DNA of 64,000 nucleotides from Eledone cirrhosa (lineage: Eukaryota): assembly GCA_964016885.1 (NCBI GenBank), contig OZ024744.1, positions 50,964,001-51,028,000 on the forward strand, given 5' to 3'. The position numbers and the translations under genes are program-made. Every line of letters starts with the position of its first letter. The stretch's first letter is position 1. Of the stretch, positions 6,112 through 54,835 are shown piece after piece. Under the pieces are notes generated by a model. The model made no database searches and was not told the origin of the DNA. It saw only the letters and a program-made list of their open reading frames with translations.

Positions 6112-8469
6112 CTGATAGCTGGACGCACACAATTTTGGTGGTAAGTTTCTGTCAATTTATTTACAAAAAACAGAAATTCTTGTTTAAAAAACACACATTG
6201 TTTTGTAGATTAACCCCCAGGCCGAATTGTCAGCTGGGTGGCAATCTCATTTTTCGCCCCCATAGGGGCGAACATTTAATTTGAGGAACTGTCCAAAACT
6301 TTTTAACATTTTGTCATCAACAATGGCTAGCGTACAAGGAACGCTAGCGAACGTTGAGAAAGAAAGAGGAAAGAAAGAAATAGACTTTAACGTTGCTACA
6401 AGCTCTGCCTGCATCAATGTAGCTACGAATAATGACAACAAAGTTTTGTTTCACGAAAGTATACAATAAAAACAAAATTGAACCACACAGTGTACAACAG
6501 ACACCAAAAACAACAGAAAATAAAACAATTGACACAACTACAAACGGAAAAACTGACAACCACAACAACATCACAAAAAAAAAAAACTTTTGCAGAAAGT
6601 CATAAACAAACAAGACTTCAAGGATATAGATATCACTAATGCAAGACAAATGTTGTCTGAGGGGAAGAAATTCATCATTTTCGAATAAGGTGGATTTAAA
6701 ATAAACTCATCCCCGGAAATCAGAATTGAAACATTTAGAAGGACAGTAACCTTCAGAACTGTTTCAAATGAAACAAAAAGACCAGCATTCCTCAGTCAAG
6801 GGGAAATTGAAGCAACCTTGAAGGAAATATTGTCAAACAGACTTTATGCAGAGGGCCAAACAGTATGGGAGTATTTCGGTGCTCCTCAAAGCGAGGCCCT
6901 CACACAAAAATATTCCGTGACACCAATCCTGTCAAAAAAAATACAGCCTTTTCCCTACAAACCTCGGAAAAAGGACTAAAAAAATTAAATTACCAACATA
7001 CCACCAAATATTAACATTTGGTGGATCCTGGTAGGATTCTTGGAACAAGGAGAGGATAACATCCTCTTCCTGTCCATCAAGAAGTCAACCAGACACACGT
7101 GGTCTGGTACAAATTTGGAGATTCTGGTTCAAATGAGGCCGGAGAGAATCCTCAAAATACCCGAAAGAGCGCTGGTCGACAACAACAGCCACATCAACAT
7201 TTCGACCGAAGTAAGAAGACCACACTGCTCCCGATGTAAAAGTACATCGCATCTAAAGGCATCTAATCGCCATTTACAGACACACTTTAAAAAAACAATC
7301 CCCCCCAAAATACTGTTGCCAACACCAACACCAACGCAGTGTGTTAGAGTGCTAGCAACGAGAACGGCACTGGACCAGTTCTTCGACGCGAAACACGAAG
7401 GCTGCGTGGTCAGAAGTAAATCACGTGCTCTAGGAAACGAGGGAGCAAAAGCTGTTAGCTGGGCCCGAGTGGCAAAGGCGAAAAGTGGCAACAAGTCCAC
7501 GATTCGGTCTTTGAAAGACCAAAACGGACGTGTGCTACTTGACTCCAAGCAAATGTGCGCGGCCTTTCAGCAGCACTTTGCGCAACTGTTCGAACAGAGT
7601 GGCGGTGCGTCGAACGGGGCAATGGACTTCGGTTCATACTTCGATGGCCTGCCGCGTCTAAGCATGGACGCCGAGTTCTGCGAAAGACCGAACACAGCCA
7701 CTGAGATACGGGATGCTCTGGGCCGCTGCGAGTAATGCAAATCACCCGGTCTAGATGATCTACCCTATGAGTTTTACATAGGCATGCCGGACTTGTTCTC
7801 TGGCGTCCTCGAAACCGTCTACTGCAATTGGTAGCAGAACGGGAGAATTGCCAGTTCTGCAGGCAGGGGCGTAGTAACGCTGAACAGGAAAGACGAGAAC
7901 AAGGGGGACGGACTAAGCAACTTTAACCCAGAGTTTAAGATTTTGGCCAAGGTGTTGGCAACGAGGTTGGCGCTTGTCGTTGAGAACCTGGTAGGGAAAG
8001 CACAAACGTGTGCAATCCCAACCAGGTCCATACACGACAACCTCCACATCATGCGATACATCATAGAGAGGGTGGGGTGTAAACCCGACTTTTGTGGGAC
8101 TCTGATCAATTTAGATCAGTCTAAGTTGTTCGATAGGGTCGACCATCGATACTTGGAAGCAAATTTACTGAAAGGTGGGTCAATGTGGCAAAAATGGACC
8201 GAGTGATTGGGCCTTCTCTGTATATAAACCTGTAGGTTGAAGAAGAGAGCACAAGGAAGAAAGGAGCACTTGCACAACACACTCCTGAAGTTGAGGGTTG
8301 TTCTATTGACGGGGCATTAAACAACACATTTGTGACGCCTCCTCCATATTGGGGATTCCGATTGTTAAATTTGTTTGTTTCAATATTTTTACACGATTGT
8401 ATGTAAAATCCCCGGCATGTGTCTTTGCTTTGTCCCCTTTTCTTGTGCGCCCTTGTGGCTAATAAAGAA

Positions 8470-8470
<1 letters not shown>
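6112..8470 (+). mobile_element. Tx1-clade LINE, 5'-intact but internally deleted; ends at AATAAAGAAA(TCTA)n
   Basis: 5'UTR homologous to 8561+. Decayed ORF1 from about 6323 with knuckle CSRCKSTSHL. Jumps into ORF2 at about 7340 (AKHEGCVVRS, NLDQSK.FDRVDH), then to the ORF2 end at about 8160 and the 3'UTR. Confidence 0.9.

Positions 8471-8560
<90 letters not shown>
8471..8560. repeat. (TATC)n spacer between tandem Tx1 copies
   Basis: Pure tetranucleotide run joining a 3' end to the next 5' end. Confidence 0.98.
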
Positions 8561-8561
<1 letters not shown>

Positions 8562-11500
8562 GCCTGACGCGTGGAACATCGCTGGTAAGCTTTTTTGTAA
8601 ATTTCTATACAAAAAAACTGAACTAATTGTTTGAAAAACATATCATTTTGTAGATTAACCCCCAAGCTGAATTATCAGCTGGGTGGAAATCCCATTTTTC
8701 GCCCCTTTAGGAGCGAAAATTTAATTTAAAAATTGTTTAAAAAAAATCAAATTTGCCGACTATAAAACATGAATAACTCGAAAAGAATGCCGGAGAACGT
8801 TGACAGAGAGACGAGAGGTAAAGAGGCAGATATTAACGTTATATCTGCTTCTGTCACTATAGACGTCGTCATAGATACGACTGTCAACAAAGAAAAAATA
8901 AGATTGCCACTTGAACATTTAAAAATTTCTACCGTCGAAGCGGAGAAAAATAACACACAACATACACAGGAAAACACAGAAATTAAACCTATTTATATAC
9001 ATACACATGAAAAATCCAACAACTCCATAGATACATCTACAGATAAGATTTCCCCTTGTCAAGAAATTGCGATTTCTAACACCGAGGCTGACAACGACGA
9101 CAACGACAACAACAAAAACAACAAAAACACCACAAAAAAAATGGATTTCGCTGAAACAGTGAACAAAAAACAAGATTTTATAATTCTTGACATCTCTAAT
9201 GCAAGGGATATGCTCCAGCAAGGGAGAAAATCTGTAACTTTCGAAGACAAGGGTGAGTTTAGAATCAACTTACCCCTCGAAATAAAAGAAGAGACGGTTC
9301 GAAGGACAGTGACCTTCAGGACTGTCTAAAAAAATACGAGAAAGCCAATATTTGTGAGTCAAGTAGACATAGAAGCCAACTTGAAGGAGACTCTAGAAAA
9401 TATTGACTTTCTTCAACGAAGAAGACAGTACGGAAGTATTTCCGTACTGTTTAAAAGCGAGGCACTCGCCCAAAAACATTCTGAGACACCAATGGTGTCA
9501 AAAGCATTCACCTTTTTCCCTACGTACATGGGAAAAAGGACACAAAAAATAAACATAAAAAATATACCACCAAACATTAACATCTGGTGGATCTTGGCTG
9601 GCTTCGTAGAGCCAGAGACTGATATGATTCTTTCGATACGAAAGTCTATTAGACAAAGGTGGGCGGGTACTGATTTGGAGATTCTGATGCAGATGAGGCC
9701 GGAGAGAATCTCCAAAATACCCGAAAAAGTCGTCATCGACGACAACAACAAAATAAATATTTCGGTGGAGGGGTGTAAACCTCATTGCTTTCGTTGTGGT
9801 AACATAACACACCTCAGCGAGGAGGTGGAGGGGGAGTGGCTGTCATGTTTCGGAAGAACCTGGACGTCGAAGTACAGCAAGTACACTTGGACCCGGAGAG
9901 TAGACTGGTAGTCCTAGACGTGAACAGTATTGGAGGTGGAGCCTTCAGACTCGTGGCCGTTTATGCCCCGACCGGGCAATCGCAATCACGGCCAGACTTC
10001 TTTAAGCGTCTAGAGTCTTTTCTGGGAACGTCTCGCTCCTTACTTTTAGTGGGGGACTTGAATGGTATCCTAGATACACGATGGGACTATGTGGGAGCAT
10101 GTCCCAGTAGAGGGGGGGGGGGGGGGGGTGCAACAGCCTCAAAACTTTAATCAGCCAATTCCAACTGGCTGATAGGTATCGACTGGATTTCCCGACTGCA
10201 CCACAGTGGACGTGGGCAAACCATAGCGGGACATCTAGATCGTATTTAGATAGGTTCTTCATTAGAGAAAGGGCCAAGGAGATGTTAAGCTGTCCACGAA
10301 TGCACATGCTTGCTTATTCAGATCACAAATTAGTCGTCTGCATAGTCAACCGTGACAGAACACATAGACAGGGTCCCGGATACTGGAAGCTGAACGTGTC
10401 GTTGCTGGCGCGTAAAGCTGACAGTGAACGAGTAAGTAGACTAGTCAAGCAACAGTTAACGGGAGCCATCGTCAACAATAGATGGTGGACTCTCTCAAGA
10501 AAGCAATTAGAGTAGAATCGATAGGGTTTAGCAGAGAGTTAGCCTTAGAGAAAAACAAAATAGAAAGAGAACTAGTAGCCAGGGTAGAGGAGGCACTTAG
10601 AAGTGGCAACGCGGCTAGAGTGTTAGCATCGAGAACGGCACTGGACCAGTTCTTCCATACGAAACACGAAGGCTGCGTGGTCAGAAGCAAAACACATGCT
10701 CTAGGAAACGAGGGAGAAAAAGGACTTAACTGGGCCCGAGCGGCGGAGGCAAAAAGTGGCAACAAGTCCACGATTCGGTCTTTGAAAGTCCAAAACGAAC
10801 GCGTGCTACTTGACTCCAAGCAAATGTGCGCGGCCTTTCAGCAGCACTTTGCGCGACTGTTTGAGCAGAACGACGGTGAGCCGAACGAGGCAATGGACTT
10901 TAGTTCATACCTCGACGGCCTGCCGCGTCTCTCGAACACGGACGCCGAGTTCTGCGAAAGACCGATCACGGACACTGAGATACGGGACTCTGGGCCGCTG
11001 CGGGAAACGCAAGTCACCCGGTTTAGATGGTCTACCCTATGAGTTTTACATAGGCATGCCGGATTGTTCTCTGGCGTCCTCGAAGCCGTCTACTGCAATT
11101 GGCAACAGAACGGGAGAATTCCCAGTTCTGCAGGCAAGGGCGTAGTAACGCTGATCAGGAAAGACGAGAACAAGGGGGACGAAATTAACAACTTCAGGCC
11201 CATAACTCTGCTCAAAACAGAGTTAAAGATTTAGGTGCTAGCAACGAAGTTGGTACTTGTCGTCGAAAATCTGGTAGGAAAAGCGCAAACGTGTGCAATC
11301 CCAACCAGGTCCATACACGACAACCTCCACCTCATGCGATACATCATAGAGAGGGTGGGTAGTAAACCCGGCTTCAGTGGGGCTCTGATCAATTTGGATC
11401 AGTATAAGGCATTCGATAGGGTCGACCATCGATACTTGGAAGCGGTTCTCAAGGCGGCCGGTTTCGGCCCCGATTTCAGTGGCTGGATCCAGGCGATGCA

Positions 11501-12477
11501 CACCAGCATCTGCTCGAGGGTCAAGGTGAACGGCTACCTATCGGAGCCCTTCGCAATCACGCGTTCCATTCGACAGGGATGCCCTCTCTCCTCCATTCTG
11601 TATGTATTGACTCTAGAGTTACTACTGCGGAAATTGGAGCTGTTGAAGGGCATCTCTCTAGAACCGGAACTGCGCAAAGCGGCGTCGGCTTATGCCGACG
11701 ACGTGACGGTAATGATGTCGGCACCTCGGAAATCGGGGTGATCGGCAACTTGCTGAAAGAATACGAAACGCTGACGGGAGCAAAACTAAACCCGGACAAG
11801 TCTGTCGGTTTGCAACTCGGTACGTGGAGAGGCAAATCGATGACGTCCGACAGCGTCGTTGGACGCTGGACGGACGGACCGGTGAAATGCTCGGGGTCTG
11901 GTTCGGTCCAGACCTCCAGGCGGAGAAAAACTGGCACGAGGTCACGGCCAAGGTATTTGCGCTCACCCAGAAGTGGGCAGAGTGCAAACTGTCCTTGAAA
12001 GGTCGAGCAGAGGTGGCGAACACTTTCATAGCGTCCGTCATCCACTACCGCTTGACTGTCGTGCCTTGTCCCCGTGAATACCTCGCCAAGATGGAACGCA
12101 TGCTCTTCCAGTTTCTGTGGAAGAAGCAGGCTCCGCTGGTGAGGAGATCCGTCTGCTGTCAGCACCCTTCCGACGGAGGGCTGGGAATGCCGTGGCTGAT
12201 GATGCGCAAACATGCACTGAGGCTGCGGCATCTCCAGGTATTCCTCACCGACCCCCCAACCGGTGTGGGAACCGTTTGTGAGACAGGCTTTCCCGCAGCA
12301 AAAGGAAGAAAGGAGCACTTGCACAATACACTCCTGAAGTTGAGGGTTGTTCTATCGACGGGGATTTCGATTGTTATAATTGTTTGTTTTATATTTTTTT
12401 ACACGATTGTATGTAAAATTCCCGGAATGTCTTTGTTTTGTCCCCTTTTCTGGTGCGCCCTTGTGGATAATAAAGAA
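8561..12477 (+). mobile_element. Tx1-clade LINE (family A), near full length, with frameshifts and deletions
   Basis: ORF1 remnants 8769-9815 (CFRCGNITHL knuckle). APE motifs VAVYAPT, GDLNG, SRSYLDRFF, YSDH. RT motifs PGLDG, FRPITLL, DQ.KAFDRVDH, RQGCPLS, AYADD. 3'UTR ends AATAAAGAAA then (TCTA)n. Confidence 0.93.
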
Positions 12478-12559
<82 letters not shown>

Positions 12560-12596
12560 TATCTATCTATCTATATATGTGTGTCAGCTCATCGAG

Positions 12597-12677
12597 TTTT
12601 ACACGACTGTATGTAAAATCCCCGGCATGTCTTTGTATTGTCCCCTTTCTTGTTGCGCCCTTGTGGCTAATAAAGAA

Positions 12678-12678
<1 letters not shown>
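12597..12678 (+). mobile_element. About 80-bp Tx1 3'UTR-only insertion flanked by a direct duplication of at least 40 bp
   Basis: Matches the family A 3'UTR. 12557-12596 is repeated at 12729-12768. Confidence 0.8.
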
Positions 12679-12731
<53 letters not shown>

Positions 12732-12758
12732 TATCTATCTATCTATATATGTGTGTCA

Positions 12759-13756
12759 GCTCATCGAGCTGCAGTCCTGAGTCAAGCAAAGATCCTGAGT
12801 CAAGCAAAGATCCTGAAAACTGGGCGACTGGCACACTGAGTGTGCCCAGGCGCTCAGGGCTCTCTGGCAAGCGGACCCGGCCATCGGTGGAGAATCCACC
12901 TCGTCATTATATAGAGGGCTAGTGGCTAGCAGGGGCGATGACACCCTTGGAGAGTCGCTGGACATGGAAGAGGAACTGGCCAGCCTGTTCGGTAGGACTT
13001 TCGGCCCGGGACCAATGGACAACTTCCAGAAGTCACTGGCCTGGCAGTGCTACCGGGGGGCTCTACCCGTTCGAGAAAAGATCTACAGACACGGGCGCCC
13101 GGGCAGGGATCCCTCGAAAAAGATTTGCCCTAGATGCGTGCGTCACGAAGAAACCGTTGCGCACGCATTGGTGCACTGTCCGGACGTGGTTGATCTGTGG
13201 GGCTACGCCGAACGACTGCTGTCGCGGGTGGCGCCGATTCGATTGACCGCCGAGTCCGTGGTAACAATCAAGCCGCCTCCCCTCTTCACAAAGGAAGCAA
13301 AGGCGGTTTTTCTATGCGTAATAGCCATGTTGAAAGAGGTTGTTTGGTGAACACGATTGAAAGGTCTGAGGTCAGGCAACTTCCTCTCTGGCCATAGTCT
13401 GGTCTACTTCTTCCGATATCACTTCGGAAGAAGGATAAGAATGGAGAGAGGTGCTTGGCCACAGGCAGTTTTATGAAAGGTGGGTGATAGTGGCGAGAAT
13501 GGCTCGTGTAAATGGGCCTTCTCTGTATACCATCCTGTAGGTAAAGAAGTGAAGGAGAGGGGAGCACCTTCTCCATGTGCTCCCCGGGCAAAGGATTGCA
13601 CACTTTTTCGGGGGTGTGTGCAACCCCCATCACGTCCCCTCCCTTTTGAGGTTGTTTTTGATTATTTTCATTTTATACCCTTTTTACTCGGTTTTATGTA
13701 ACCCCCCCCTTTGTATTTGTCCCCTCTTTTTATACCTTTATGGTAATTAAAGAAAT
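12759..13756 (+). mobile_element. 5'-truncated Tx1 LINE (family C), ORF2 C-terminus plus 3'UTR
   Basis: AWQCYRGALP and the CPRC..ETVAHALVHC zinc finger; distinct 3'UTR; followed by (TATC)n. Confidence 0.9.
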
Positions 13757-13757
13757 A

Positions 13758-13813
<56 letters not shown>

Positions 13814-13814
<1 letters not shown>

Positions 13815-15034
13815 CTTTGGAAGAGGCGGGCTCCTATGGTGAGGAGATCCATCTGCTGTCAACACCCTTCGAAAGGAGGGCTGGGGATGCCGTGGCTAAT
13901 GATGCGTAAACACGCATTAAGGCTACGGCACCTCTACGTATTCCTCACCGGTCAACCGGTGTGGGCCTCGTTTGTGAGACGAACCTTTCCCAGACTCGTC
14001 TCACTCACCGAGCTGCAATCCTGGGTCAAGCAAAGACCGAGAAAACTGGGCGCCTGGCACACTGAGTGTGCCCAGGCGCTCACCGCCCTCTGGCAGGCGG
14101 ATCCGGTTATCAGTGGAGACTCCACCGCAACATTCTATAGAGGGCTGGTACGCAGCAGGTGCGACGACGCCCTCGGAGAAGCCCTAGACATGGAGGAGGA
14201 CGAACTGGCCAGCCTGTTCGGTAGGACATTCAGCCCGGGACCTATGGACAACTTCCAGAAGTCCCTGGCCTGGCAGTGCTACCGAGGGGCTTTACCCGTT
14301 CGAGAAAGGCTCTACAGACACGGGCGTCCGGGTAGGGACCCCGCCAAAAAGATCTGTCCCAGATGCGTGTGCGACGAGGAAACCGTTGCACACACATTGG
14401 TACACTGCTCGGGCGTAGCCGATCTGTGGGGCTATGTCGAACAACTGCTGTCAAGGGTGGGACCAATCCGGTTGACCACCGAGTCTATTGTAATGATCAA
14501 GCCGCCTCCCCCCTTCAAAGATGAAGCAGAGGCGGTGTTTCTGTGCGTAATAGCCATGGCGAAAGAGGTTGTATGGTGGACGCGTCTGAAAGGACTGAGG
14601 TCAGGCACCTTTCTCTCTGGCCAACAACTGGTCCGTTTCTTCCGATATCATTTCGGAAGAAGGATCAGGATGGAGAGAGAGGTGCTCCACCCCAGTCGTT
14701 TTTATGAAAGGTGGGTGAAAGTGGCGAGAATGGCCCGTGTGAATGGGCCTTCTCTTTACATAAGCCTGTAGGCGGAAAAGAGGAAGGAACGAGGGAGCAC
14801 CCTCTCTCTGTGCTCCTGAGGAAAAGGGTTGCACACTTTTTTCGGGGGTGTGTGCGACCCCCCAAGGCGCCTCCTCTCTATTGAGGATTTTGTTATAAAT
14901 TTTATTTTTTGTTATATTTTATTTTATTTTTATATTTTGTTATTGCCTCCTCCTTATTGAGGACGCCTTTTTGTGTAAACTCCCCCCTTTGTACTTGTCC
15001 CACTTTTGATGCCCTGGTGGCAAATAAAAGAAAC
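13814..15034 (+). mobile_element. 5'-truncated Tx1 LINE (family D), ORF2 C-terminus open to 14771
   Basis: Starts immediately after (TATC)n and ends in (TATC)n; GGLGMP and zinc finger present. Confidence 0.93.
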
Positions 15035-15035
15035 A

Positions 15036-15086
<51 letters not shown>

Positions 15087-15087
<1 letters not shown>

Positions 15088-16865
15088 GCGCGGTCCATCC
15101 GACAGGGGTGCCCTCTCTCCTCCCTTCTGTATGTAATGACTCTAGAGCCACTGCTGCGGAAGTTGGAGTTGTTGCAGGGCATCCCGTTGGAACCGGGATT
15201 GCGGAAAGCGGTGTCAGCCTACGCCGATGACGTAACAGTAATGGTGTCGACGGCCTCGGAAATCAGGGCGATCGGCACCTTACTGGAGGAGTACGAAAGG
15301 TTTACAGGGGCTAAGCTGAACCGGGACAAGTCGATCGGTCTGCAACTCGGCACGTGGAGGGGCAGATCGATGCCCTCCGATGGCGTCGTCGGGCGCTGGA
15401 CGGAGGGCCCGGTGAAGTTGCTGGGGGTCTGGTTCGGACCAGACCTCCAGGTGGAGAAGAACTGGGGTGAGGTGACGAACAGGGTGTTTGCACTGACCCA
15501 GAAGTGGGCCGAGTGCAAACTGTCCCTGAAAGGACGGGCGGAGGTGGCGAACACTTATATAGCGTCCGTCATCTACTACCGCCTGACCGTTGTGCCTTGC
15601 CCAAGGGAAACGCTCGCCAAAATGGAGCGCGCACTCTTCCAATTCCTTTGGAAGAAGCGGGCTCCTATGGTGAGGAGATCCATCTGCTGTCAACACCCTT
15701 CGAAAGGAGGGCTGGGGATGCCGTGGCTAATGATACGTAAACACGCATTAAGGCTACGGCACCTTCAGGTATTCCTCTCCGGTCAACCGGTGTGGGCCCC
15801 GTTTCTGAGGCGAGCCTTTCCCAGACTCGTCTCACTCACCGAGCTGCAATCCTGGGTCAAGCAAAGACCGAGAAAACTGGGCGCCTGGAACACCGAGTGT
15901 GCCCAGGCACTCACGGCTCTCTGGCAGGCGGACCCGGCTGTCAGTGGAGAATCCACCTCGTCATTCTATAGAGGGCTGGTGGTTAGCAGGTGCGACGACG
16001 CCCTCGGAGAAGCCCTAGGCATGGAGGAAGACGAACTGGCCAACCTGTTCGGTAGGACATTCAGCCCGGGACCCATGGATAACTTCCAGAGGTCCCTGGC
16101 CTGGCAATGCTACAGAAGGGCTCTGCCCGTTCGAGAAAGGCTCTACAGACACGGGCGCCCGGGTAGGGACCCATCGAAAAAGATCTGTCCCAGATGCGTG
16201 TGCGACGAGGAAACCGTTGCACACGCATTGGTACACTGCTCGGGCATTGCCGATCTGTGGGGTTATGTCGAACAACTGCTGTCAAGGGTGGGACCAATCC
16301 GGTTGACCACCGAGTCTATTGTAACGATCAAGCCGCCTCCCCTCTTCAAAAACGAAGGAGAGGCGGTGTTTCTGTGCGTAATAGCCATGGCGAAAGAGGT
16401 TGTATGGTGGACGCGTCTGAAAGGACTGAGGTCAGACACCTTTCTCTCTGGCCAACAACTGGTCCGTTTCTTCCGATATCATTTCGGAAGAAGGATCAGG
16501 ATGGAGAGAGAGGTGCTGCACCCCAGCCGTTTCTATGAAAGATGGGTGAAAGTGGCGAGAATGGCCCGTGTGAATGGGCCTTCACTCTACATCAGACTAT
16601 AGGTGAGGAAGATGAAAGACCAAGGGAGCACCCCTTCTCTGTGCTCCTGAGGAGAAGGGTTGCACACTTTTTTCGGGGGTGTGTGCGACCCCCCAAGGCG
16701 CCTCCTCTCTATTGAGGACTTTGTTATAAATTTTATTTTTTGTTATATTTTATTTCATTTTTATATATTGTTATTGCCTCCTCCTTATTGAGGACGCCTT
16801 GTTTTGTAAACTCCCCCCATTGTACTTGTCCCACTTTTGATGCCCTGGTGGAAAATAAAAGAAAC
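15087..16865 (+). mobile_element. 5'-truncated Tx1 LINE (family D)
   Basis: Flanked by (TATC)n on both sides; near-identical 3' half to 13814-15034. Confidence 0.93.
15136..16602 (+). CDS. Tx1 ORF2 C-terminal part (RT YADD, thumb, zinc finger); truncated, not a full gene
   Basis: 488-aa open frame with AYADDVT, KLLGVWF, GGLGMP and CPRC..H..C. Confidence 0.85.
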   Translation: MTLEPLLRKLELLQGIPLEPGLRKAVSAYADDVTVMVSTASEIRAIGTLLEEYERFTGAKLNRDKSIGLQLGTWRGRSMPSDGVVGRWTEGPVKLLGVWFGPDLQVEKNWGEVTNRVFALTQKWAECKLSLKGRAEVANTYIASVIYYRLTVVPCPRETLAKMERALFQFLWKKRAPMVRRSICCQHPSKGGLGMPWLMIRKHALRLRHLQVFLSGQPVWAPFLRRAFPRLVSLTELQSWVKQRPRKLGAWNTECAQALTALWQADPAVSGESTSSFYRGLVVSRCDDALGEALGMEEDELANLFGRTFSPGPMDNFQRSLAWQCYRRALPVRERLYRHGRPGRDPSKKICPRCVCDEETVAHALVHCSGIADLWGYVEQLLSRVGPIRLTTESIVTIKPPPLFKNEGEAVFLCVIAMAKEVVWWTRLKGLRSDTFLSGQQLVRFFRYHFGRRIRMEREVLHPSRFYERWVKVARMARVNGPSLYIRL

Positions 16866-16866
16866 A

Positions 16867-16936
<70 letters not shown>

Positions 16937-16937
16937 A

Positions 16938-16971
<34 letters not shown>

Positions 16972-16984
16972 GTCTGTCTGTCTG

Positions 16985-17069
16985 TTTTTATGAGTAGACG
17001 TGTGACGGCTCGATGGTGAGTTTTTTAATTTTCTACGAAGTTCTGATAGGAAATTCTGATATTTGTAAA
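16985..17069 (+). mobile_element. 5' stub of a further Tx1 element, cut off at an (ATT)n/Dong junction
   Basis: AGACGTGTG..GGTGAGT has the same GACG-N15-GTRAG spacing as the Tx1 5' ends at 6122, 8566 and 48642. Confidence 0.55.
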
Positions 17070-17086
17070 TTATTATTATTATTATT

Positions 17087-19665: not shown

Positions 19666-19674
19666 TATTATTAT

Positions 19675-19930
19675 TATGTCTGTAAATTAAAGGTGGAAAA
19701 CTGGGAGAGGGCACTTGCCCTGGTGGTCAGGGCCACTGTGGTCTTTTAATGGGCTTTCTCCACAAATGTCCCTTGGAAGTCTCCCCCCTATTGGGGAATT
19801 TTTTCTTTGTTATTTTATTTCAACCTCTGTTTTTTTACACGCAGAAATGCCCATTTGTACCGTCCTGTATTGTCCTGTACTGTCCTTAATGTCTACTTTA
19901 TGTGAACCCTTGTGGTTAATAAAGAAAACA
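19675..19930 (+). mobile_element. 3'UTR-only copy of the (ATT)n-tailed Tx1 family B2
   Basis: Matches 42905-43170; flanked by short and long (ATT)n runs. Confidence 0.88.
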
Positions 19931-19965
19931 TTATTATTATTATTATTATTATTATTGTTATTGTT

Positions 19966-22158: not shown

Positions 22159-22159
22159 A

Positions 22160-22245
<86 letters not shown>

Positions 22246-32119: not shown

Positions 32120-35100
32120 TCTGTCCACTTAGCCATTTTCTCTTTTTCGACTATAACATTTCTGATCCAAAATTAAATATTAAATATTGGGGCCCAATGC
32201 CGTAATGTGATGCGTTGTCGCCTGCTGAGGGCCAAAATGGTAATCTTATATTTCATTTGTAATAAGAGTTATTCTATAACAGTTGTTTTAAATAAGTAAA
32301 AATCAAAAACTTACGGGAGCGATTCCATAACGATATATATCCACCATGTGCGTTTCCTTCCCTTTAGCGGTAAAGTCGAGAACGACAATAACAAAAATAA
32401 CAGCGGTAAAGTCGAGAACGACAATAACAAAAATAACAGCGGTAAGGTCGAGAACGACAATAACAATGACAATAACAACAGCCACAACAACAATAATAGT
32501 AGGAACAGTATCAACAAAAACAACAATAATAACAATAGCCACAATAACAGTATCAACAGCAACAGTATCAACGAAAACAACAACAACAGCAACACCAACA
32601 ACTGTACCGACGAAAACATCAACAATGACACCGATACCTGTAGCAGCGATCTCAGCACCACCAGCAAAACCAGTAGCGGCAGCAATAGTGGTGCTGCTGA
32701 AAAAGGGACCACTTCTTTTGCAGGTGTCGCCCGAAATATCGAGACAGTGTTAGTCACAGAGGAGGAGATGGCAGTCGCAAGCGCTATGGTGACAAGAAGC
32801 GCAAATAGAGTTTCCCTGAAACCTCCACCCGAGAATCGAGAACAGGGCGACCATGCTGCAAGTAGAGAAAATAGGGAGAGAGAACTGGTCAGGTATACGC
32901 ATGCAAATGCTTATACAAACTGACCAGGAATGTATCGACGCTATCCCCTATAAGTGTAGAAGGAACATGGCCAAAATGTTATCTCTGTGGGTCGAAGGGT
33001 CACCTCAGGGCCTTTTGCCATCAGAAGACAGCGAAGAAGGCCCCTCTCCTTCCAATACCTGGTCCGCGGCTACCAAGAGCAGGGCAGACAACAAACGAAG
33101 AAGCCCCTTCCACGGTGTGTAGGAGGGCAACGTCCGTAGCACCCGTACCAAGGCCACGGACAACTAAAGCATCATCATCAGTAACGGCAACACCAATAGA
33201 TCCATTTGAAGTAGCTACACCAGCAACAAAATTGCCGAAGAGGGCTCCACTACTACCACCAACAACCGTGGAGCACATACCCCTCCCAGATGCCACAGAA
33301 TCCGACATGGAGTTTGAGGCGGGAGTAACGTGGCAAACAGTCTGCCACAAAAAAGAAAAAAGAAAAAAACCCTTAGATTCACCCTCCAAAAGCGAAGGCA
33401 TACAAAGAGGGGTAAAGGCAGCAAGGAAACTTGCAGCAACACCACCACCATCACCACCACAAACACCAACAACGCAAACACAACAAGACACACACACCGA
33501 ACAGCAACAAGAAGAAAACAGCAACAAAATCACCCCTCCCCCCAAAAAGTACACAGCCATAAACATGGCAAAAAAAGAACTCATACATTATATAAAGCAG
33601 CACACAGACACCACAGAAAAAAACTACTACACCCCACCAACACCAAGAACTCTCCCGACAAACATAAGCGTCATCGAAATCTCAATAGAACAGTACAAAC
33701 CTTTAAAACAAAAATTCCCCAACGCAGTTGGAGACTTCAGATGGTTGGTTACCAAGAGGATATACACTGACATCCTCTTGGAAACACCCATGATCAGCGA
33801 AAGGGACGGTTCTACTGTCCCTTCACCACACGAACAAGGTAAGTGACCCTTTCTCACTTGCCCCGTTTCTCATCCAGCATGGCTGTACTCAGAATAGGCA
33901 GTATAAATGCACGTGGCCTGGGGTCATCTTGGAAGCAGGGTCACCTGCTCAATGACCTCAGGTCACTAAACATAGATGTGGTGGCCATCAGTGAAACCAG
34001 AATCTCCGAAGCACAAGCCTTCGCACCGATCTTTGGCGGCTACGATGTATACGCATCTCCCAGCGGTCCAGGATCGGGGGGAGGGGTTGCCGTCCTTTTT
34101 CGGAGAGGCTTGGATCTCGCGATACGGGCCATCTTCCTAGACCCAGAAGGTAAGTCGGTGGTGCTAGACGTGACCGGCAGCGAAGGCAATGCTTTCAGGC
34201 TAGTAGCCGTCTACGCCCCAACAGGGGCAGAACGGCCAGATTTCTTCAGACGTCTAGAGTCCTTTCTTGGAACGTCCCGCTCTTTAGTGTTAGTGGGCGA
34301 CTGGAACGGTATCTTGGATGCACGCTGGGATCGTGTGGGGCTAGTGGATAGGGGAGGAGGGTGCAAGAGCCTCACCAACCTGCTCAGACGTTTTGAACTG
34401 TCTGACAGGTATCGACTGGATCACCCGAATGTGCCAATGTGGACATGGACAAACCGCATCGGGTCATCCAGATCGTATCTCGATAGGGTATTCTGCAGAG
34501 AACTAGATAAGGCTAGTATAAGTTGTCCACAATTTAAAATAGTCGACTACACAGACCACAAATTTGTGATCTGTGAGATCGACATAGACAGACTTCATAG
34601 ACAAGGGCCTGGTTACTGGAAGCTGAACGCGTCTTTCCCGGCGCGCAAAGCCTACAGAGACCGGATTAGCGTATTAGTTAAGCGGGCGTTGACGAGAGCG
34701 GTTGTCAACAACAGGTGGTGGTTCGCCCTGAAAAGGGCAATTAAAGTAGAGTCGATTATGTTTAGCAAAGGAGTAGTGATAGATGAAAATAGAGTAGAGG
34801 GAGAGCTAGTCAGAAAGCTAGAAGAGGCGTTTAGGACAGGCATCGCAACCGACGTGCTTGCGGCGAGATTGGCACTCGACCAATTCTTCAACGCAAAACA
34901 CGAAGGCTACGTTGTCAGAGCTAGAGCGCGTGCTCTGAAACACGAGGGGACAAAAGCCGTCCAATGAGCCCGGGTGGCAGAGGCGTGACGTGGCAACAAA
35001 GCCACAATTCGGTCTTTGTCTGATCAAAACGGGTGCGTCATGCTCGAACCCGAGCGGATATGTGAAGCTTTTCAGCAGCACTTTGCTGAACTGTTCGGGA

Positions 35101-37411
35101 GCGGCGGCCGCCCGGATCGGGGCATGGACTTCAGTGCATACTTCGACGGACTGCCTCGGCTCTCGACGACCGAAGCACAGTGTTGCGAAAAGCCAATAAC
35201 AGCCGGTGAAATACGGGAAGCGATGACTAACTGCATGAGGGGTAAATCGCCAGGTTTAGATGGTCTGCCCTACGAGCTTTATGCATTTATGCCAGACTTG
35301 TTCGGTGACCTCTTGACAGGCGTCTACTGCAACTGGCAGCAGAACGGGATCATTCCCAGTTTTGTGAGCCGGAAAGCAGTGGCGCTGCTGAGAAAAGACC
35401 CGAACAAGGGGGATGTTATCGATAATTTCAGGCCCATAACTCTGCTAAACGCAGAGTTCAAGATTTTGGCCAAGGTGTTAGCAACGAGGTTGGCGCTGTC
35501 GTCAAGGGTCTGGTGGGAGAGGTGCAGACATCCGCCATTCCGGACAGGTCCATACACGACAACCTCCACCTCATGTGATACATCATAGAGAGGGTGGTTA
35601 AGGAACCTGGCAAGGGTGGGGCCCTGATCAACTTGGATCAATCCAAAGCATTCGATAGGGTCGACCATCGGTACCTGGCGGCGGTCCTCGAGGCAGCCGG
35701 TTTCGGGCCCGTTTTCAGGAGTTGGATCGCAGCAATGTACAGCGACATCTGCTCAGTTGTGAGGGTGAACGGTCACCTGTCGCAGCCGTTCAGCATCATG
35801 CGCTCAGTCCGCCAGGGTTGTCCCCTCTCATGCCTCTTGTACGTATTGCCTCTCGAGCCGTTACTGCACAAACTGGGGACGATGAGGGGCGTCCCACGCG
35901 AACTAGGATGCGGGAAATCCGAGTCGGCTTACGCTGACGACGTCACCGTGGTGGTGTCGAGCACCAGACACGTCCAGATGCTCGGCACCGCTCTCAAGGA
36001 ATACGAAGCGGTGACAGGAGCAAAGATAAACCAGGAAAAGTCGGTAGGCTTGCAGCTCGGCACCTGGAGAGGCAAGTCCATGTCGTCCGACAGAGTCGTG
36101 GGGCGTTGGACGGACGGACCGGTTAAATTGCTCGGGGTCTGGTTCGGACCGGACCTCCAGGTGGAGAAAAACTGGAACGAGGTGACGAGCAGGGTGGCCT
36201 CCCTCACCCAGAAATGGGCTGAGAGGAAGCTGTCCCTGAAAGGCCGGGCGGATGTGGCGAATGCATACATCGCATCCGTCATCTGCTACCGCCTCACCGT
36301 TGTCCCTTGCTCCAGCCCAACTCTCACCAAAATGGAGCGCATCCCCTTCCGCTTTTTGTGGAAGGGACGCGCTCCCATGGTCAGACGATCCATCTGCTGT
36401 CAACACCCATTGCGTGGAGGACTGGGCATGCCATAGCTGATGATGCGCAAACATGCGCTGAGGCTGCGACATCTCTTGTGCTTCCTTGACGGTGAACAGG
36501 TGTGGTCGCCGTTCGCCAGGCACGCTTTCCCACAGCTCGTCTCCTTGACGGAGCTGCAGTCCTGGGTCAGAAAAAGACCGAGGGATAGCGCTTGGAAACT
36601 GGAATGTCTCCAGGCGCTCACTGCCCTCTCCCAGCTGGACACCAGTATCGGTGGAACATCCACCTCGACGTTCTATAGAGGACTAGTGGAGGGGAAGAGC
36701 GACGACATTCTCGGAGATATCCTGGGCGTCGAAGAAGATCAGCTGTTTGCTCTCTTCCGGAGAACTTTCAGCCCGGGGCCTATGGATAACTTCCAAAAAT
36801 CCCTGGCCTGGCAGTGTTACCGGGGAGCGCTGCCGGTTCGAGATAAGCTCTACAAGCACGGAAGTGCCGTCAGCCGAGCCTGTCCGAGATGCGCGCAGAG
36901 CGACGAAACCGTTGTGGACAAGGTTAAAAGGGTTAAAGACAGACACTTTCCTCTTCGGCGAATCCCTAATTAACTTTTTCAAGTTTCACTTGAAGAGGAA
37001 AATCAGGGTGGAGAGGCAAGTGCTGCTTTCTAACAAGTTTGTTGAAAGGTGGGTGAATGTAGCGAGAATGGTCCGAGTGAACGGGACCGCTCTGAATATA
37101 CGTCTGTAGTTTGAGAGATGGAAAAATTGAGAGAGGGCGCTTGCCCTGGTGGTCAGGGTGGACGTGGCCTTTTGTGTGGTTTTCGCCACGAGTAACCCTC
37201 GGAGGTTTCCCCCCTATTGGGGTATTTTTCATTGTTTCAATTTTCATTTTTATTGTTTATATATATATGTTTCTATGTCCTTTTTTTTTCTTCTTTTCTT
37301 ATATAAATAATAAAAATATTTACACGCACAAAACCCACATCGTACCGCCCTGTACCGTCCTGTGCCGTCTGTAATGTTTTTCTTGATGTCAGCCCTTTCT
37401 TGATGTCAGCC
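32120..37411 (+). mobile_element. Near full-length Tx1-clade LINE (family B1) followed by (ATT)n; 5' boundary uncertain
   Basis: ORF1 remnants 32346-33846 (three 36-bp repeats, low-complexity N-terminus). ORF2 from ATG 33879 (GSINARGL, ISET, YAPT, GDWN, LDR, TDH) through RT (AYADD) to the stop at 37109, with stops and frameshifts. Confidence 0.92.
33879..37109 (+). pseudogene. Tx1 ORF2 (APE endonuclease, RT, zinc finger), disrupted
   Basis: ORF pieces 33843-34967, 35016-35588, 35594-36436, 36440-36973 and 36747-37109 tile one polyprotein. Confidence 0.9.
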
Positions 37412-37438
37412 ATTATTATTATTATTATTATTATTATT

Positions 37439-40400
37439 GGTCTAAGCGGACGTATTTTGCTCGCTCACAGTAAGTCGCTTTATTTGCCTGTTAAAATTAT
37501 TTGTTGTTAAATATTTCTTGTTGTGTAAGGGATATAAGCCCTTAGACTTTGCCCCGTGAAGGGGAAAGTATAATATTTGGGCCTTTTGGCCCAAATATTT
37601 GAGCTTTTTTTTACATGTTAAAAAATTTACGAAGAAAAAAAAACATGGCTGAGCCACGCCCCCCAGCAATATGTCTGCTGTCGTGCGACAACGACGTAGA
37701 AGTTGAGAGGAGCGCTACAGCGAAATTAACACACATTGATAACACAAACACCACCACAAACAAGGTAAACAAAGACACCAATGATACCAATAAGAACACT
37801 AATTTTGAAAAAAATGACAGTAACAGCGACAACGAAAATACAGATAACAAAAAAAAAATAACAAATACAACAACAATATCAACACCACTAACATGAAAAG
37901 AAATAGCGACAACACCAACAACAACAATACCAATGCACCGAGAACAACGGTGGCAACAAAGACAACATTGATAACAGCGACAGTGCTCACAACAACACCA
38001 ACAAGAACAACGACAACAAAACCACCTACGAAAACAAGAAGAACACTGGCTGCGGCAGCAGCAAAAAAGAGGCCATGCTTCAACATGGACCTCTCAAATA
38101 TAAATGAAAAGTTGGCCCAGGCATGGAAGCGCATCAAGCAAGAGCAAACCTGGGCCAACTTAACTGTTCCGGTAGAAGCTATTGAGGCAGTGGGGCGCAG
38201 AACGGTGCATTATAGATGCATCTCAGCACAAACCAAAATGGCAGCTTTAATCCCACAAGAAGATGTCGAAGTCGCGCTGAGGTGCATCAGAGAAGACACC
38301 CAGTACATAGAGAGGGGCAGACAGTACGGCACCATTTTGGTGTTGTTCAAGTCAGAAGCCCTCGCTATGAAACACGCTATGACTCCTTGCAAAACCAGCA
38401 AGGTCATAATGTACTGCTCCCACATGGGAAAAAGAACGGTCCGTCTCCGCATTCCCAGAATCCCACCAGGACTTGACACGTGGTGGCTTCTGGGATGTGT
38501 GATTGTGGAAGGGACGGATACAGTCCCTATATAAGTGACCAGAACGGCCAGAGAGGACTGGTCCGGGGTTGACCTGGAGATCCTTCTCCAGATCAGGCCC
38601 GAGAATGTGAAGACAATCCCGGACCACATCCGCCTTCAAAATGGGACGGTCATTCACATTATGACTGAAGGCAAAAGGCCGCAGTGTTTTGTTTGTGGGG
38701 AAAAAACCCCATTTGTGAGCCTGCTGCCCTCAACTGCTGAAAGAGGCAAGGGGTCTGCCGACGCCGGGGCGAGGACCACAAACAACACCACCACCGCCAA
38801 AACCAACACCAACAACACCACCACCAACATTGACTACCCAGGGGGGAAACGAGGAAAACTGTCAACCCCCCCCCCCCAAATACACACACCAATAAAGCCA
38901 TAAACATACATACAGATACACTTACAGACACAGACCCCTCATCTACCAGTAGTGAAAATGAGGGAAATCCCAAATCCCCCAAAATACAAAAAAGGAAACA
39001 CAAAAAGAAAAAAAAACTCAACAAAGCACAAAAGTACCCACAATAAAAAACGCAGACACCACCCACGCAAACATCTCTCAAATAACACCACCATCAACAC
39101 CACCATCACCATCATCAGAATCCCCCAAACGCAAACAACCGAAACAGACGCAAGAACAAATATACACACAAACATCTGAAACCACGGACACCGCACTCAC
39201 AACAAACACAGATACAACCGAAACAACACCACCAAAACCATCACCACCACAGCCACGCAAACAAATAAAATCACACCAACAAAACATACAAAACTTCGTG
39301 CTCGTTAGGAGGGCCAACAAGGAACTGATGGCCCTCGTAGCACGAAGTGAAAATATACAAAAAGAGGGGGACACTTTTAAATCGAGCACATTTCGCGTGC
39401 CGGACGATTTGGTTCTGGTGCGAATGTCGCTCGACATATTCAAAGAAATACGAGACAGCTTTCCTCGGGACGTGGGAACCCCGAACGTAAAACCCACTTC
39501 AAGACTTTTAAAGGGGTTCCCAAAAGAAACCCCACTAACTATGGAGGTCGAACAACCCGGCCTTCACAAGAGCCCGGAAGGTAAGTAAACCTTCCTCTCT
39601 CTCTGTTTAACCTGCCAACATGGCCGTATTGAGAGTAGGATGTTTAAATGTTCGAGGCCTGGGATCGTCCTGGAAGCAGCGTCACCTGCTCAACGACCTC
39701 AGGTCTATAGAAATGAATGTAATTGCAGTCTGCGAGACCAGGATTTCCGACACGCGCGCACTAGCCCCCATTTTCGACGATTATCAGATTTTTGCATCTG
39801 TTAGCCGGCCGGGAATGGGAGGCGGGTGGCAGTGCTGTTTAGGAAAGGCCTGGATCTCGAGGTAAGGTCGATCTTTCGGGACCCAGACGGGAAGTTGGTG
39901 GTCCTGGACGTGAACAATAATGAAGGTGGTGCCTTTAGACTGGTGGCCGTCTATGCTCCTACTGGGGCAGGTCGGCCGGACTTCTTTAGACGCCTGGAAG
40001 CCTTTCTGGGTACGTCTCGCCCTTTACTGTTAGCGGGGGACTGGAACAGCATCTTAGACGCACGCTGGGACTGTGTGGGAGTATCCGATAGGAGCGAGGG
40101 GGTGCAAAAGCCTCAAGAACCTGATCAGCCAGTTCCAACTGTCTGACAGGTACCGACTAGATTTCCCTAATGCGCCAGTGTGGACCTGGGCTAACCGCAT
40201 AGGGTCATCTAGATCGTATATAGACAGGATATTCATTAGGAAAATAGACAGAAATAGTGTAAGCTGTCCACGTTTTGAAACGGTCGCCTATTCAGATCAC
40301 AAGTTTGTGATCTGTATGGTCTTACAGGGACCAGGTCAACAATTTAGTTAAGAAAAAGTTGACAGGGGGAATCGTCAACAATAGATGGTGGGGGGCTCTC

Positions 40401-43169
40401 AAAAGAGAGATTAGAGTAGTGTCGATAGAGTTTAGCAAAGAAGTGGCATTAGAGAAAAATAGAAAGGAGGGGGAGTTGGTAGATAAGTTAGACGAGGCTA
40501 TTGGTAGTGGCATTGCAACTGACGTGCTAGCGGCGAGAATGGCATTAGACCATTTCTTCAATGCGAAACACGAAGGTTGCATTGTCAGAGCTAAGGCGCG
40601 TGCTCTGAGAAACGAGGGAACCAAAGCTGTTCAATGGGTCCGCGTGGCAGAGGCGCAGCGTGGTAATAAAACCACGATTCGGTCTTTGATGGACCGAGAT
40701 GGACACGAGCTGAACGATTCCAAGCGGATGTGTGAGGCCTTTCGCCAACATTTTGCTCGGTTGTTCGGGGGAAGTGGCGGGTCAGAGATGGCGGACTTCA
40801 GTCCCTACCTCGATGGCTTGCCGCAACTATCGACGGCTGACGCTGGGCGCTGTGAAAGGCCAATTACTTCAGCCGAGATTCAGGATGCCCTTGTCGGCTG
40901 CATGAGGCGCAAGTCACCCGGTTTGGATGGTCTGCCCTACGAGCTTTACGTAAATATGCCAGAGTTGTTCTCCAATCTCCTCGAAGCCCTCTACTGTAAC
41001 TGGCAGCAAAACGGGAGTATTCCCAGTTCTGTGAGCCGGGGCGTAGTGTCGCTGATAAGGAAAGACGAGAACAAGAGGGGCACATTAGACAATTTCAGGC
41101 CCATAACTCTGCTCAACACAGAGTTTAAGATTTTGGCCAGGGTGTTAGCGAAGAGGTTGGCGCTTCTCGTCGGGGATTTGGTTGAGGAGGCGCAAACTTG
41201 CGCAATCCGAACCAAGTCCATACACGACAACCTCCACCTAATGCGATACATCATAGAGAGGGTAGGGTGTAAACCTGGCTTCGGTGGGGCTCTAATCTAT
41301 TTAGATCAATCGAAAGCATTCGATAGGGTCGACCATCGGTACATGGAGGCTGTCCTCAAGGCGGCTGGCTTCGGCCTCGTCTTCAGAAGCTGGATCGCTG
41401 CAATGCACAGCGGCACTTGCTCGATGGTCAAAATTAATGGCCACCTCTCGGAACCGTTTCAGGTCTCCCGATCGGTCCGTCAAGGGTGCCCTCTCTCCTC
41501 CCTTCTGTACGTATTGACTCTCGAGCCTTTACTGCGGAAGCTGGAGCTGTTGCAGGGCTTCCCGTTCGAACCGGGACGCGGAAAGGCTGTGTCGGCTTAT
41601 GTGGACGACATCACCGTGATGGTGTCGGACACCTCAGAAATCGAGGTGGTCTCAGAAACGAGGGGACAAAAGCCTTCGATGGGCCCGAGTGCGGAGGCGC
41701 GTCGTGGCAACAAAGCCATGATCCGGTCTTTGGAGGACCATGACGGACGCATGTTACACGGACCCGAGCAAATGTGTCCGGCTTTTCAACGGCACTTCGC
41801 ACTGCTGTTCGGGGGCAGCAGTGGGTCGGATCGCAGGATGGACTTTAGCGCCTACCACGACGGACTGCCGCGCCTCTCGGCCACTGAAGTGGAGTGTTGC
41901 GAAAGGCCCATAACAACCGCTGAAATACGAGTAGCAATGACTGACTGCACGATGGGTAAATCGCCAGGTTTGGATGGTCTGCCCTACGAACTTTACGTAC
42001 AAATGCCAGACTTGTTCAGCGACCTCTTGGCGGATGTCTACTGCAACTGGCAGAACGGGAGAATTCCCAGCTCTGTGAGCCGAGGAGCAGTAGCGCTCTT
42101 GAGAAAGGACCCAAACAAGGAGGATAAGATAGATAATTTTAGACTAAAAGCAGAGTTCAAGATTTTGGCCAAGGTGGTAGCTAACAAGTTGGCGCTTCTC
42201 GTCGGTGGTCTAGCGGGAGAGGCGCAGACATGCGCCATTCCAGACCAGTCGGGCAATACGATCGGTGGAAACTCCACCTTGAGGTTCTATAGAGGGTTAG
42301 TGGAGGGAAAGAGCGACGACGTCCTTGGGCAGACTCTGGACGTCGACGAAATTCAACTAGCCAATCTTTTCGGGAGAACATTCGGGCCGGGGTCCATGGA
42401 CAACTTCCAGAAATCCCTGGCCTGGCAGTGCCACCGAGGAGCTTTGCCAGCTCGGGATAAACTCTACAGGCTTGGAAGTGCCGTCAGCCGGGTCTGTTCA
42501 AGATGCGCGCTGGGTGACGAAACCATCCTGCACGCATTCGTCCAGTGTCCGAGCATTGCTGACTTGTAGTTTTATGTCGAACACCTGCTGCCGCGTGTAG
42601 GACGGATCCGGCTATCAACTGAGTCCATCGTGAGGATTGCCACGCCCTCTTCCTTTAGCCAGGAAGGGCAGGCAGTTTTTATCTGCCTGGTGGCCATGGC
42701 GAAAGAGATAGTGTGGTGGACACGTTTGAAAGTGCTGAAGACGAGCACTTACCTCTTCGGTGATGCCCTGATTAACTTTTTCAAATTTCATTTGAAAAGG
42801 AAAATCAGGGTAGAGAGGGAAGTGCTCTCTTCCCAGCATTTTGTTGAAAGATGGGTGAGAGAGGCAAGAATGGCCCGAGTGAATGGGCCTACTCTGAGTA
42901 TGTATCTGTAAATTAAAGGTGGAAAACTGGTAGAGGGCATTTGTCCTGGTGGTCAGGGTCACTGTGGTCTTTTAATGGCCTTTCTCCACAAATGTCCCTC
43001 GGAAGTCTCCCCCCCCTATTGAGGAATTTTCCTTTGTTTCTTTTTTTTGTCATTTTCTTTGTTTTTGTTTTTTCTTTACACGAGAAATGCCCATTTGTAC
43101 CGTCCCGTACCGTCTTGTGATGTCCTTAATGTTATACTTTATGTCAACCCTCGTGGTTAATAAAGAAAA

Positions 43170-43170
<1 letters not shown>
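37439..43170 (+). mobile_element. Full-length-sized Tx1-clade LINE (family B2), bounded by (ATT)n at both ends, internally chimeric
   Basis: ORF1 remnants 37645-39588 (CFVCGEKT knuckle). ORF2 from ATG 39620 to 42911. 3'UTR ends AATAAAGAAAAC(ATT)n. Confidence 0.92.
40359..42569 (+). pseudogene. Chimeric Tx1 ORF2 with a duplicated linker/RT N-terminal block
   Basis: KSPGLDGLPYELY and NFR..EFKILA each occur twice in one 736-aa frame; junctions at about 41653 and 42247. Confidence 0.85.

Positions 43171-43210
<40 letters not shown>

Positions 43211-43213
<3 letters not shown>

Positions 43214-48489: not shown

Positions 48490-48490
<1 letters not shown>
46606..48490 (+). mobile_element. 5'-truncated Tx1 family A copy flanked by (TATC)n
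   Basis: RT to C-terminus (46577-47179, 46663-47550, 47444-48256); 3'UTR then (TCTA)n. Confidence 0.93.
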
Positions 48491-52920
<4,430 letters not shown>

Positions 52921-52933
52921 TCTATCTATCTAT

Positions 52934-53527: not shown

Positions 53528-53600
53528 GTAAACAGAAACAACACAATCGGTACAGTATATGGAAGGAATATATTAGGTTAACGTATAGATAGATAGATAG

Positions 53601-54662: not shown

Positions 54663-54663
54663 T

Positions 54664-54702
<39 letters not shown>

Positions 54703-54741
54703 TGAGTATAGATATAACGTATAGATAGATAGATAGATAGA

Positions 54742-54835
54742 TATCTTTATTTGTCCCAGAGGCGTACAAAAATGGAACATTACAAGACGTGATGGCGGGG
54801 GTTTTACATAAAAATCATAAAACTTTAACATTAAT
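54742..54835 (-). mobile_element. Diverged Tx1-like 3' terminus ending in (TATC)n
   Basis: Reverse complement: atgtaaaacccccgcc..gtcttgtaatgttcc..acgcctctgggacaaataaagatatctatc. Confidence 0.6.

Follow-up and report, generated by a model that had tools for sequence, protein, structure and literature searches.

TATC-targeting LINEs of Eledone cirrhosa and a young branch that inserts at AATAT

An array of LINE pieces joined by TATC tracts

The window, that is, the whole stretch of 64,000 nucleotides of Eledone cirrhosa DNA analysed here (OZ024744.1, 50,964,001–51,028,000, assembly GCA_964016885.1; positions are 1-based within it), carries at 6112–17068 an array of seven pieces of long interspersed nuclear elements (LINEs), c1 to c7. 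The sequence and the mapping to genomic copies place every piece on the plus strand. Pieces c1–c3 belong to family A, c4 to family C, c5 and c6 to family B, and c7 is a 5′ stub. The proteins of the second open reading frame (ORF2) are 72–83% identical among the three families. An earlier note, made from the sequence alone, had described seven same-strand copies from at least three families, six of them ending in a common terminus and (TATC)n. Both descriptions are confirmed: six of the seven pieces terminate with a AATAAAGAAA-like, AATAAA-containing sequence, followed by 12–22 perfect TATC units. The note had also reported that each next copy starts within or right after the preceding tract. 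This is true of c5 and c6, but not of c3, which lies within a 91-bp duplication, nor of c7, which is preceded by (TATC)n(TGTC)3 and a short T-run. The pieces and tracts are as follows.

6112..8472, plus strand: c1, family-A-like LINE; 5′ head kept, ORF1 and ORF2 remnants, large internal deletions
8473..8560, plus strand: (TATC)22, spacer between c1 and c2
8561..12480, plus strand: c2, family A; 5′ head kept, two internal deletions, frameshifts, reverse transcriptase (RT) domain
12481..12575, plus strand: (TATC)n after c2, belonging to the 91-bp duplication
12597..12680, plus strand: c3, 84-bp 3′ tip, 100% identical to young family A
12681..12747, plus strand: (TATC)n after c3
~12750..13757 (start approximate), plus strand: c4, 5′-truncated family C with zf-RVT, 94.7% identical to copy L121
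13758..13813, plus strand: (TATC)14
13814..15035, plus strand: c5, 5′-truncated family B, beginning directly at the tract end, 93% identity
15036..15087, plus strand: (TATC)13
15088..16866, plus strand: c6, young 5′-truncated family B, beginning directly at the tract end, 98.5% identity
16867..16985, plus strand: (TATC)n, then (TGTC)3
~16993..17068, plus strand: c7, stub of a 5′ head from a further family, placed by its head motif only and cut by an opposite-strand RTE-like LINE

Relative to a young genomic reference copy, the array pieces range from about 89% to 100% identity, and therefore the array grew by separate events. Against young family A, c1 shows 68–90% identity and the ORF2 part of c2 95%. 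The flank upstream of c1 is (CT)n(TA)n, not (TATC)n. Piece c3 does not directly follow a tract; it is enclosed by a perfect 91-bp duplication (12506–12596 = 12678–12768) and is a late insertion within it. The length of this duplication (12506–12768) is far above the usual 8–19 bp. RT and zf-RVT domains were detected in the ORFs of the window, and none of the seven pieces has an intact ORF2. All 12 perfect tracts of (TATC)≥5 or (GATA)≥5 in the window adjoin an element of these families.

The elements belong to the L1 group

Intact genomic copies are about 5.8 kb long and encode an ORF1 of about 600 aa (596 aa when counted from ATG) and an ORF2 of 1148 aa. ORF2 contains an N-terminal apurinic/apyrimidinic (APE) endonuclease (PF03372) and an RT (PF00078), with a C-terminal zinc motif (PF13966) below the cut-off. 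Its best match in the PDB is human L1 ORF2p (8sxt, E 1.8e-55), versus E 1.6e-22 for R2. With endonuclease (EN), RT and zinc motif in ORF2, two ORFs, 5′ truncation and target-site duplications, these elements are APE-type retrotransposons without long terminal repeats (non-LTR) of the L1 group.

Membership of the Tx1 clade is likely. The ORF1 of Tx1-clade elements is of the RRM/CCHC zinc-knuckle type, unlike that of mammalian L1 (PMC5203782; this and the other papers cited are drawn on in part). Here, a CX2CX4HX4C knuckle is visible in copy L107 and degenerate in L095, and the ORF1 matches zf-CCHC, RRM and ZCCHC3-like clusters of the atlas at 0.90–0.92. A Pfam scan of ORF1 found no domain. The knuckle and the RRM/zf-CCHC resemblance would fit Tx1. 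The top structural match of the EN is 2v0r 'LTX', by a margin too small to be telling (30.3 bits versus 28.0 for L1 EN); we take LTX to be L1 EN with the Tx1L hairpin loop. Searches with the family proteins returned no Tx1-named protein among the matches. Both of the named close homologs come from cephalopods, one from Argonauta hians (72% across a portion of the RT region) and one from Acanthosepion pharaonis (52%), and a metagenome scan for relatives found none. A sister family associated with ATT repeats is 65–68% identical to the TATC families in ORF2.

Insertion at TATC is seen across the genome

The family-A element ends at a fixed point, AATAAAGAAATC. Its 23-base terminus occurs 1628 times in the genome and is followed by TATC in 1338 cases (82%), by AATA in 122 and by T[not A]T in 44. 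The last class is flanked by (TC)n and is of mixed age by eye; several of its members lie at TATC-to-(TC)n borders. As a flank sample we took 99 of the first 100 listed family-A ends by position on contig C1, keeping duplicates. The sample contains 75 TATC-type, 13 AAT-type, 3 ATT-family and 8 other ends, and a poly(A) run was found at the 3′ junction of none of the 99. Family B has 1494 ends, with a TATC flank in 28 of 30 sampled, and the ATT sister family has 2798 ends, with an ATTAT flank in all 30 sampled. A microsatellite-specific LINE has been defined by one sequence type in more than 20% of its flanks (PMC4494074, in part), a share that all three families exceed.

At the 5′ junction, we scored copies of at least 97% identity ('young') whose junction lay within the DNA retrieved. 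TATCTAT is present there in 33 of 40 young 5′-truncated TATC-type copies versus none of 10 AAT-type copies, and its background is 0.3% of random 36-base windows. The pattern that the earlier note had named as contrary to its proposal, a 3′ tail with random 5′ flanks, is therefore not what the truncated copies display.

Target-site duplications begin directly after the last base of the element and span 8–19 bp. Of 42 TAT-type copies, 27 have an exact duplication of at least 8 bp, and in 11 of these it extends into non-repeat DNA. Since the TATC tract starts where the duplication starts, the tract is mostly target and not tail. Just 1–2 perfect units follow 27 of the 75 TATC-type ends; together with the duplications into unique DNA, this indicates that the target pre-exists and is the short motif TATCTAT, so the repeat array that the note had taken as the target is not required. 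Another same-strand member directly follows 21 of the 75 ends. These elements insert specifically at TATC, and we see hardly any room for doubt about it; as had been proposed, the target is kept on both sides, and head-to-tail arrays locked in orientation are formed in several families.

Full-length copies carry less weight. Among 30 top-scoring 5′ heads, 28 have TATCTATC immediately upstream, 10 come after the 3′ end of another element, and 10 share an interrupted TATC variant at an identical offset. The full-length copies L107 and L217 lie in non-TATC sites, and after the duplication they still start with CTATCTATCTCTCTTTC. The shared variant and these two starts indicate that the full-length head itself carries about two TATC units. 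Consequently, only truncated copies test targeting, and the 5′ TATC of full-length copies is no proof of it, as it had been for the note. At the 5′ junction of L217, one non-target G stands between duplication and head, and it may be a copy of the cap; for the G of L107, the target is a possible source.

At least four further types of 5′ head were seen downstream of TATC tracts (L346, L347, L350, L351, L081), which implies more TATC-associated families than the three of the window. Contigs aligned to two young insertions gave no joint across the element; at the first, flanking repeats dominated the alignment, and the covering runs may be the assembly's own sample.

A young branch of family A inserts at AATAT

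Among the 30 closest relatives of window positions 48060–48260, 11 end on AATA and one on AATC rather than on TATC. A synonymous single-nucleotide polymorphism (SNP) 525 bases from the end, -525A, marks these AAT-type copies. In an allele-by-flank table built from an allele-only genome search and the retrieved loci, 48 of 54 exact genomic carriers of -525A are AAT-type versus 7.5% overall, and all 34 carriers of both -525A and -890T are AAT-type. A tree was made from 59 copies (57 young ones of at least 1 kb and two older; duplicates L041, L108 and L172 left out), a set enriched in AAT copies by design. On it, target type changes 5 times versus 19.3 times for shuffled labels, none of the 500 shuffles giving so few, and 29 of the 34 AAT copies cluster together.

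The flanks of 57 AAT copies have AAT at bases 1–3 by class definition (57/57), A at the fourth base in 56 and T at the fifth in 51. The sixth base is T in 30 of 51 versus a background of 34% (p=3e-4). This graded match to AATATT agrees with the flank of the full-length AAT copy L107 (AATATTAACC). Duplications of at least 8 bp (8–19 bp) were found in 33 of the 57 copies, and the base preceding them is C or T in all 33 (background 53%). None of the 13 AAT-type ends in the flank sample is followed by another member; by this sample of 13 ends, the AATAT branch forms no arrays. Several AAT-type copies (L107, L108 and L109 on C1 at 35.25 and 36.18 Mb, L225, L039–L041) are located in satellite arrays and were amplified with the satellite unit. 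The full-length satellite-borne copy is a candidate source locus.

We compared seven AAT copies (L106, L107, L108, L109, L217, L223, L239, of which L108 and L109 probably arose from the L107 insertion by duplication) with seven young TATC copies in their EN domains, and found private differences only and none shared. The claim that an APE endonuclease specific for GATA accounts for the target by itself is not sustained by this comparison. Near-identical young copies (98–99.7%) with the same EN fall into two target classes, and ORF2 is intact in both (L094, L098 and L156 for TATC; L106, L107 and L239 for AAT). No ORF2 change is common to all AAT copies, and no 3′ untranslated region (UTR) variant common to them was found. 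The main AAT group shares D932Y in ORF2 (-890T) and a Q-to-R change in ORF1 (-4172G). The rule that different targets go with different endonucleases fails within family A and holds only between families: the EN of the ATT family is about 60% identical to that of the TATC families, with the hairpin NRIGSSRSY versus NRSG.SRSY.

A flank-derived RNA guide may select the site

The AATAAA signal sits 6 nt before the family-A element end. Poly(A) cleavage normally takes place 10–30 nt downstream of AATAAA, so flank sequence would be left on the RNA. We favour, with moderate confidence, the idea that this read-through RNA pairs with the nicked DNA and selects the site. A loosely specific endonuclease would first nick beside a pyrimidine. 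The nicked DNA end would then pair with a few bases of flank origin at the 3′ end of the RNA, and extension would be confined to sites that match. With its source copy in (TATC)n, an element would tend towards TATC sites; with a source copy that has AATATT behind it, it would tend towards AATAT. An insertion at TATC duplicates a few units and keeps target on either side, and this seeds the same-strand arrays. The match to AATATT weakens away from the junction, as would follow from primer pairing. The exact nick cannot be placed, since RNA and target match across it. A further step, which we regard as evenly balanced, is that the target is inherited from the landing place: a single misplaced source copy would have redirected an element that is otherwise the same, away from (TATC)n and towards AATAT, and freed it from arrays, possibly twice.

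Several points weigh against this account. The read-through and the RNA 3′ end are deduced from the DNA. Seven of the 40 young truncated TATC-type copies lack the upstream TATCTAT, although some of these are internal deletions and not true junctions. Six -525A carriers are TATC-type, 24 of the 57 AAT copies have no clear duplication, the 29-copy AAT group is weakly supported (82/72) and drawn open, and the tree neither demonstrates nor rejects that the AAT copies arose once (approximately unbiased test, p-AU 0.137). D932Y occurs in 33 AAT copies versus one TAT copy, and recombination, or mobilisation in trans by a D932Y protein, could account for the AAT copies without it. No fully intact AAT-type source with both ORFs was found. 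The linked target switch is seen in one family, A; in family B, where 142 of 1494 ends are followed by ATAT and a non-C base, 28 TATA-type and 30 TATC-type copies cannot be told apart by any SNP. Finally, the EN difference between families means that a protein-coded preference certainly contributes to targeting.

Alternative explanations of the two targets

A protein change outside the endonuclease could have switched the branch, either D932Y, which lies C-terminal to the RT, or the Q-to-R change in a low-complexity region of ORF1. We consider this unlikely, even though the former is nearly confined to AAT copies and the latter occurs in 4 AAT and none of 8 TAT copies. L093, L235, L238, L040 and L212 are AAT copies without D932Y. 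Three of them (L093, L235, L238) have an AATATT flank and share a haplotype of their own (G480S, M858I, A1052S), and L238, the sole one of the three that is long enough, lacks the ORF1 change as well. In addition, the TATC-type copy L092 carries D932Y, and the linkage is expected anyway if the burst came from a single source copy. It is quite unlikely that recognition of GATA/TATC lies with the endonuclease alone, the AATAT copies being off-target insertions by that enzyme. The prevalence of TATC at family-A and family-B ends and the hairpin shared by the TATC families but changed in the ATT family speak for it, and the endonuclease has been called the main determinant of target choice (PMC4494074, in part). 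However, off-target events should scatter across lineages, as the TATA class of family B does, and the AATAT copies are linked to a lineage that has the same EN.

The AAT-branch RNA might be inserted in trans by the ORF2 of another LINE or end differently, for example by polyadenylation right after ...GAAAUCAAU. The genome does have many active LINE families, some of them tied to (ATT)n and (AAT)n. This explanation is nevertheless highly improbable: the junction base is identical to that of the TATC copies, A-runs are absent from the sampled ends, the target of the ATT family is ATTAT rather than AATAT, and no 3′ UTR feature inside the element sets the AAT copies apart. We find it scarcely credible that (TATC)n is merely a tail made in reverse transcription and that the arrays arose by chance or by tandem duplication. 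The TATC remnant of full-length heads could be so read, as could the few copies with a 3′ tract but no 5′ TATC (e.g., L052, L083), and certain neighbouring copies are indeed duplicates (L040/L041, L074/L075). The upstream TATCTAT of truncated copies and the duplications into unique DNA oppose it, and neighbours in the window differ in family and age.

Other elements in the window

Further members of these families, and of the ATT sister family, lie outside the array.

46588..53449, plus strand: second array, (TATC)5 and then three copies with tracts between
46608–48492, plus strand: young 5′-truncated family-A copy of the second array, followed by a tract
48637–52922, plus strand: 5′-complete, deleted family-A copy of the second array, then (TATC)3
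52935–53449, plus strand: truncated copy of the second array
53600–54662 within 53585..54810, minus strand: young family-A copy with GATA tracts on both sides, preceded by the 3′ end of another member
33437..43212, plus strand: sister family tied to (ATT)n, whose two copies here meet at (ATT)9 (37412) and end in (ATT)14 (43171); the left edge, 33437, is the alignment start and not the element end
19677..19956, plus strand: ATT-family 3′ tip, then (ATT)9, inside the tail of an opposite-strand RTE-like LINE

The ATT sister family is often inserted in the (AAT)n tail of an opposite-strand RTE-like LINE, which gives tail-to-tail pairs (window 19930–19956 and 43171–43212; also L271, L272, L285, L290, L297). 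It also builds head-to-tail arrays of its own (L333–L338). On the minus strand, 17069–31006 holds several RTE-like LINE copies, 92–98% identical, with (AAT)n tails and nested in one another; their clade is assigned by look only. Penelope-like elements with RT and GIY-YIG, repeated ends and (TA)n and (CA)n borders occupy 55775–59479. The segment 23054–23805 aligns with its reverse complement (83%, 764 bases) on either side of a long (AT)/(AC) tract. The heads of dissimilar families share GACG/CACG and, about 20 bases on, GT[A/G]AGT or a close variant, which resembles a 5′ splice donor (window 6120–6150, 8565–8592 and 16995–17022; heads in L350 and L351). This motif is possibly an internal promoter or a U1-binding element.

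Relation to known site-specific LINEs

Microsatellite targets are known for the Tx1 elements Kibi, (TC)n, Koshi, (TTC)n, and crocodilian Tx1, (TTCC)n/(TTTC)n (PMC4494074, PMC3812793, both in part). The present families resemble them in the APE-type EN and RT of ORF2, in the preference for simple repeats and in having related families that use different repeats. They differ in their target, TATC (ATT in the sister family), a repeat absent from the targets given there, and in a short motif that works in unique DNA too; for Kibi, Koshi or crocodilian Tx1, those parts of the papers describe no switch of target inside one family at an unchanged EN. A (TC)n or (TTC)n target of the Kibi/Koshi type was rejected for family A, only 44 of 1628 ends being followed by T[not A]T.

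In SART1Bm, a target-like RNA 3′ sequence anneals to the nicked strand, and R1Bm is cited as needing downstream target for accurate reverse transcription (PMC7265360, in part). R1Bm, SART1Bm and R7Ag, all of the R1 clade, thus share with our proposal a target-like RNA 3′ end able to pair with the nicked strand. As far as these sources go, pairing there affects accuracy at an EN-defined site, whereas here it appears to shift a natural lineage to another motif; moreover, SART1Bm and R7Ag require a poly(A) tail, and none is present at the junctions of these copies. Human L1 has the same ORF2 layout (EN, RT, C-terminal zinc motif), a similar duplication length and graded primer pairing, the snap-velcro model giving graded importance to the first 4–10 primer bases (PMC3649969, in part). 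L1 pairs poly(A) with T-tracts, a fixed pairing sequence, whereas the sequence here would derive from the donor flank and be changeable.

LINE insertion in microsatellites is also found in other clades. Waldo and Mino belong to R1 and Dong to R4. Their repeats are ACAY for Waldo, AC for Mino and TAA for Dong (PMC3812793, in part). Dong and the ATT sister family use the same repeat class, yet the latter is 65–68% identical to the TATC families in ORF2. Further context is given by PMC4640811, PMC5753468, PMC5203782, PMC10294476 and PMC11203168.

A literature search with Repbase and most subscription papers outside its scope found no paper on a TATC-targeting Tx1 and none on a flank-inherited target switch, which is weak evidence of novelty. 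A GATA-targeting Tx1 could be described in the supplements of PMC4494074 or in Repbase.

Implications

The TATC target by itself is a modest extension of the list of microsatellite-specific LINEs, and the within-family switch weighs more. The target choice of APE-type site-specific LINEs is usually ascribed to the endonuclease. Many of this genome's GATA and ATT microsatellites are junctions of elements, a point relevant to marker design. Because both classes retain intact ORF2s, the guide question is directly testable by exchanging a few RNA bases after ...GAAAUC (UAUCUAUC, AAUAUUAA, AAUAUU). If the guide is real, it would supply evolution with a simple mechanism and LINE-based insertion tools with a short handle on the RNA side. 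If targets are inherited from the landing place, site-specific LINEs would have a natural route to change their target before the endonuclease changes.

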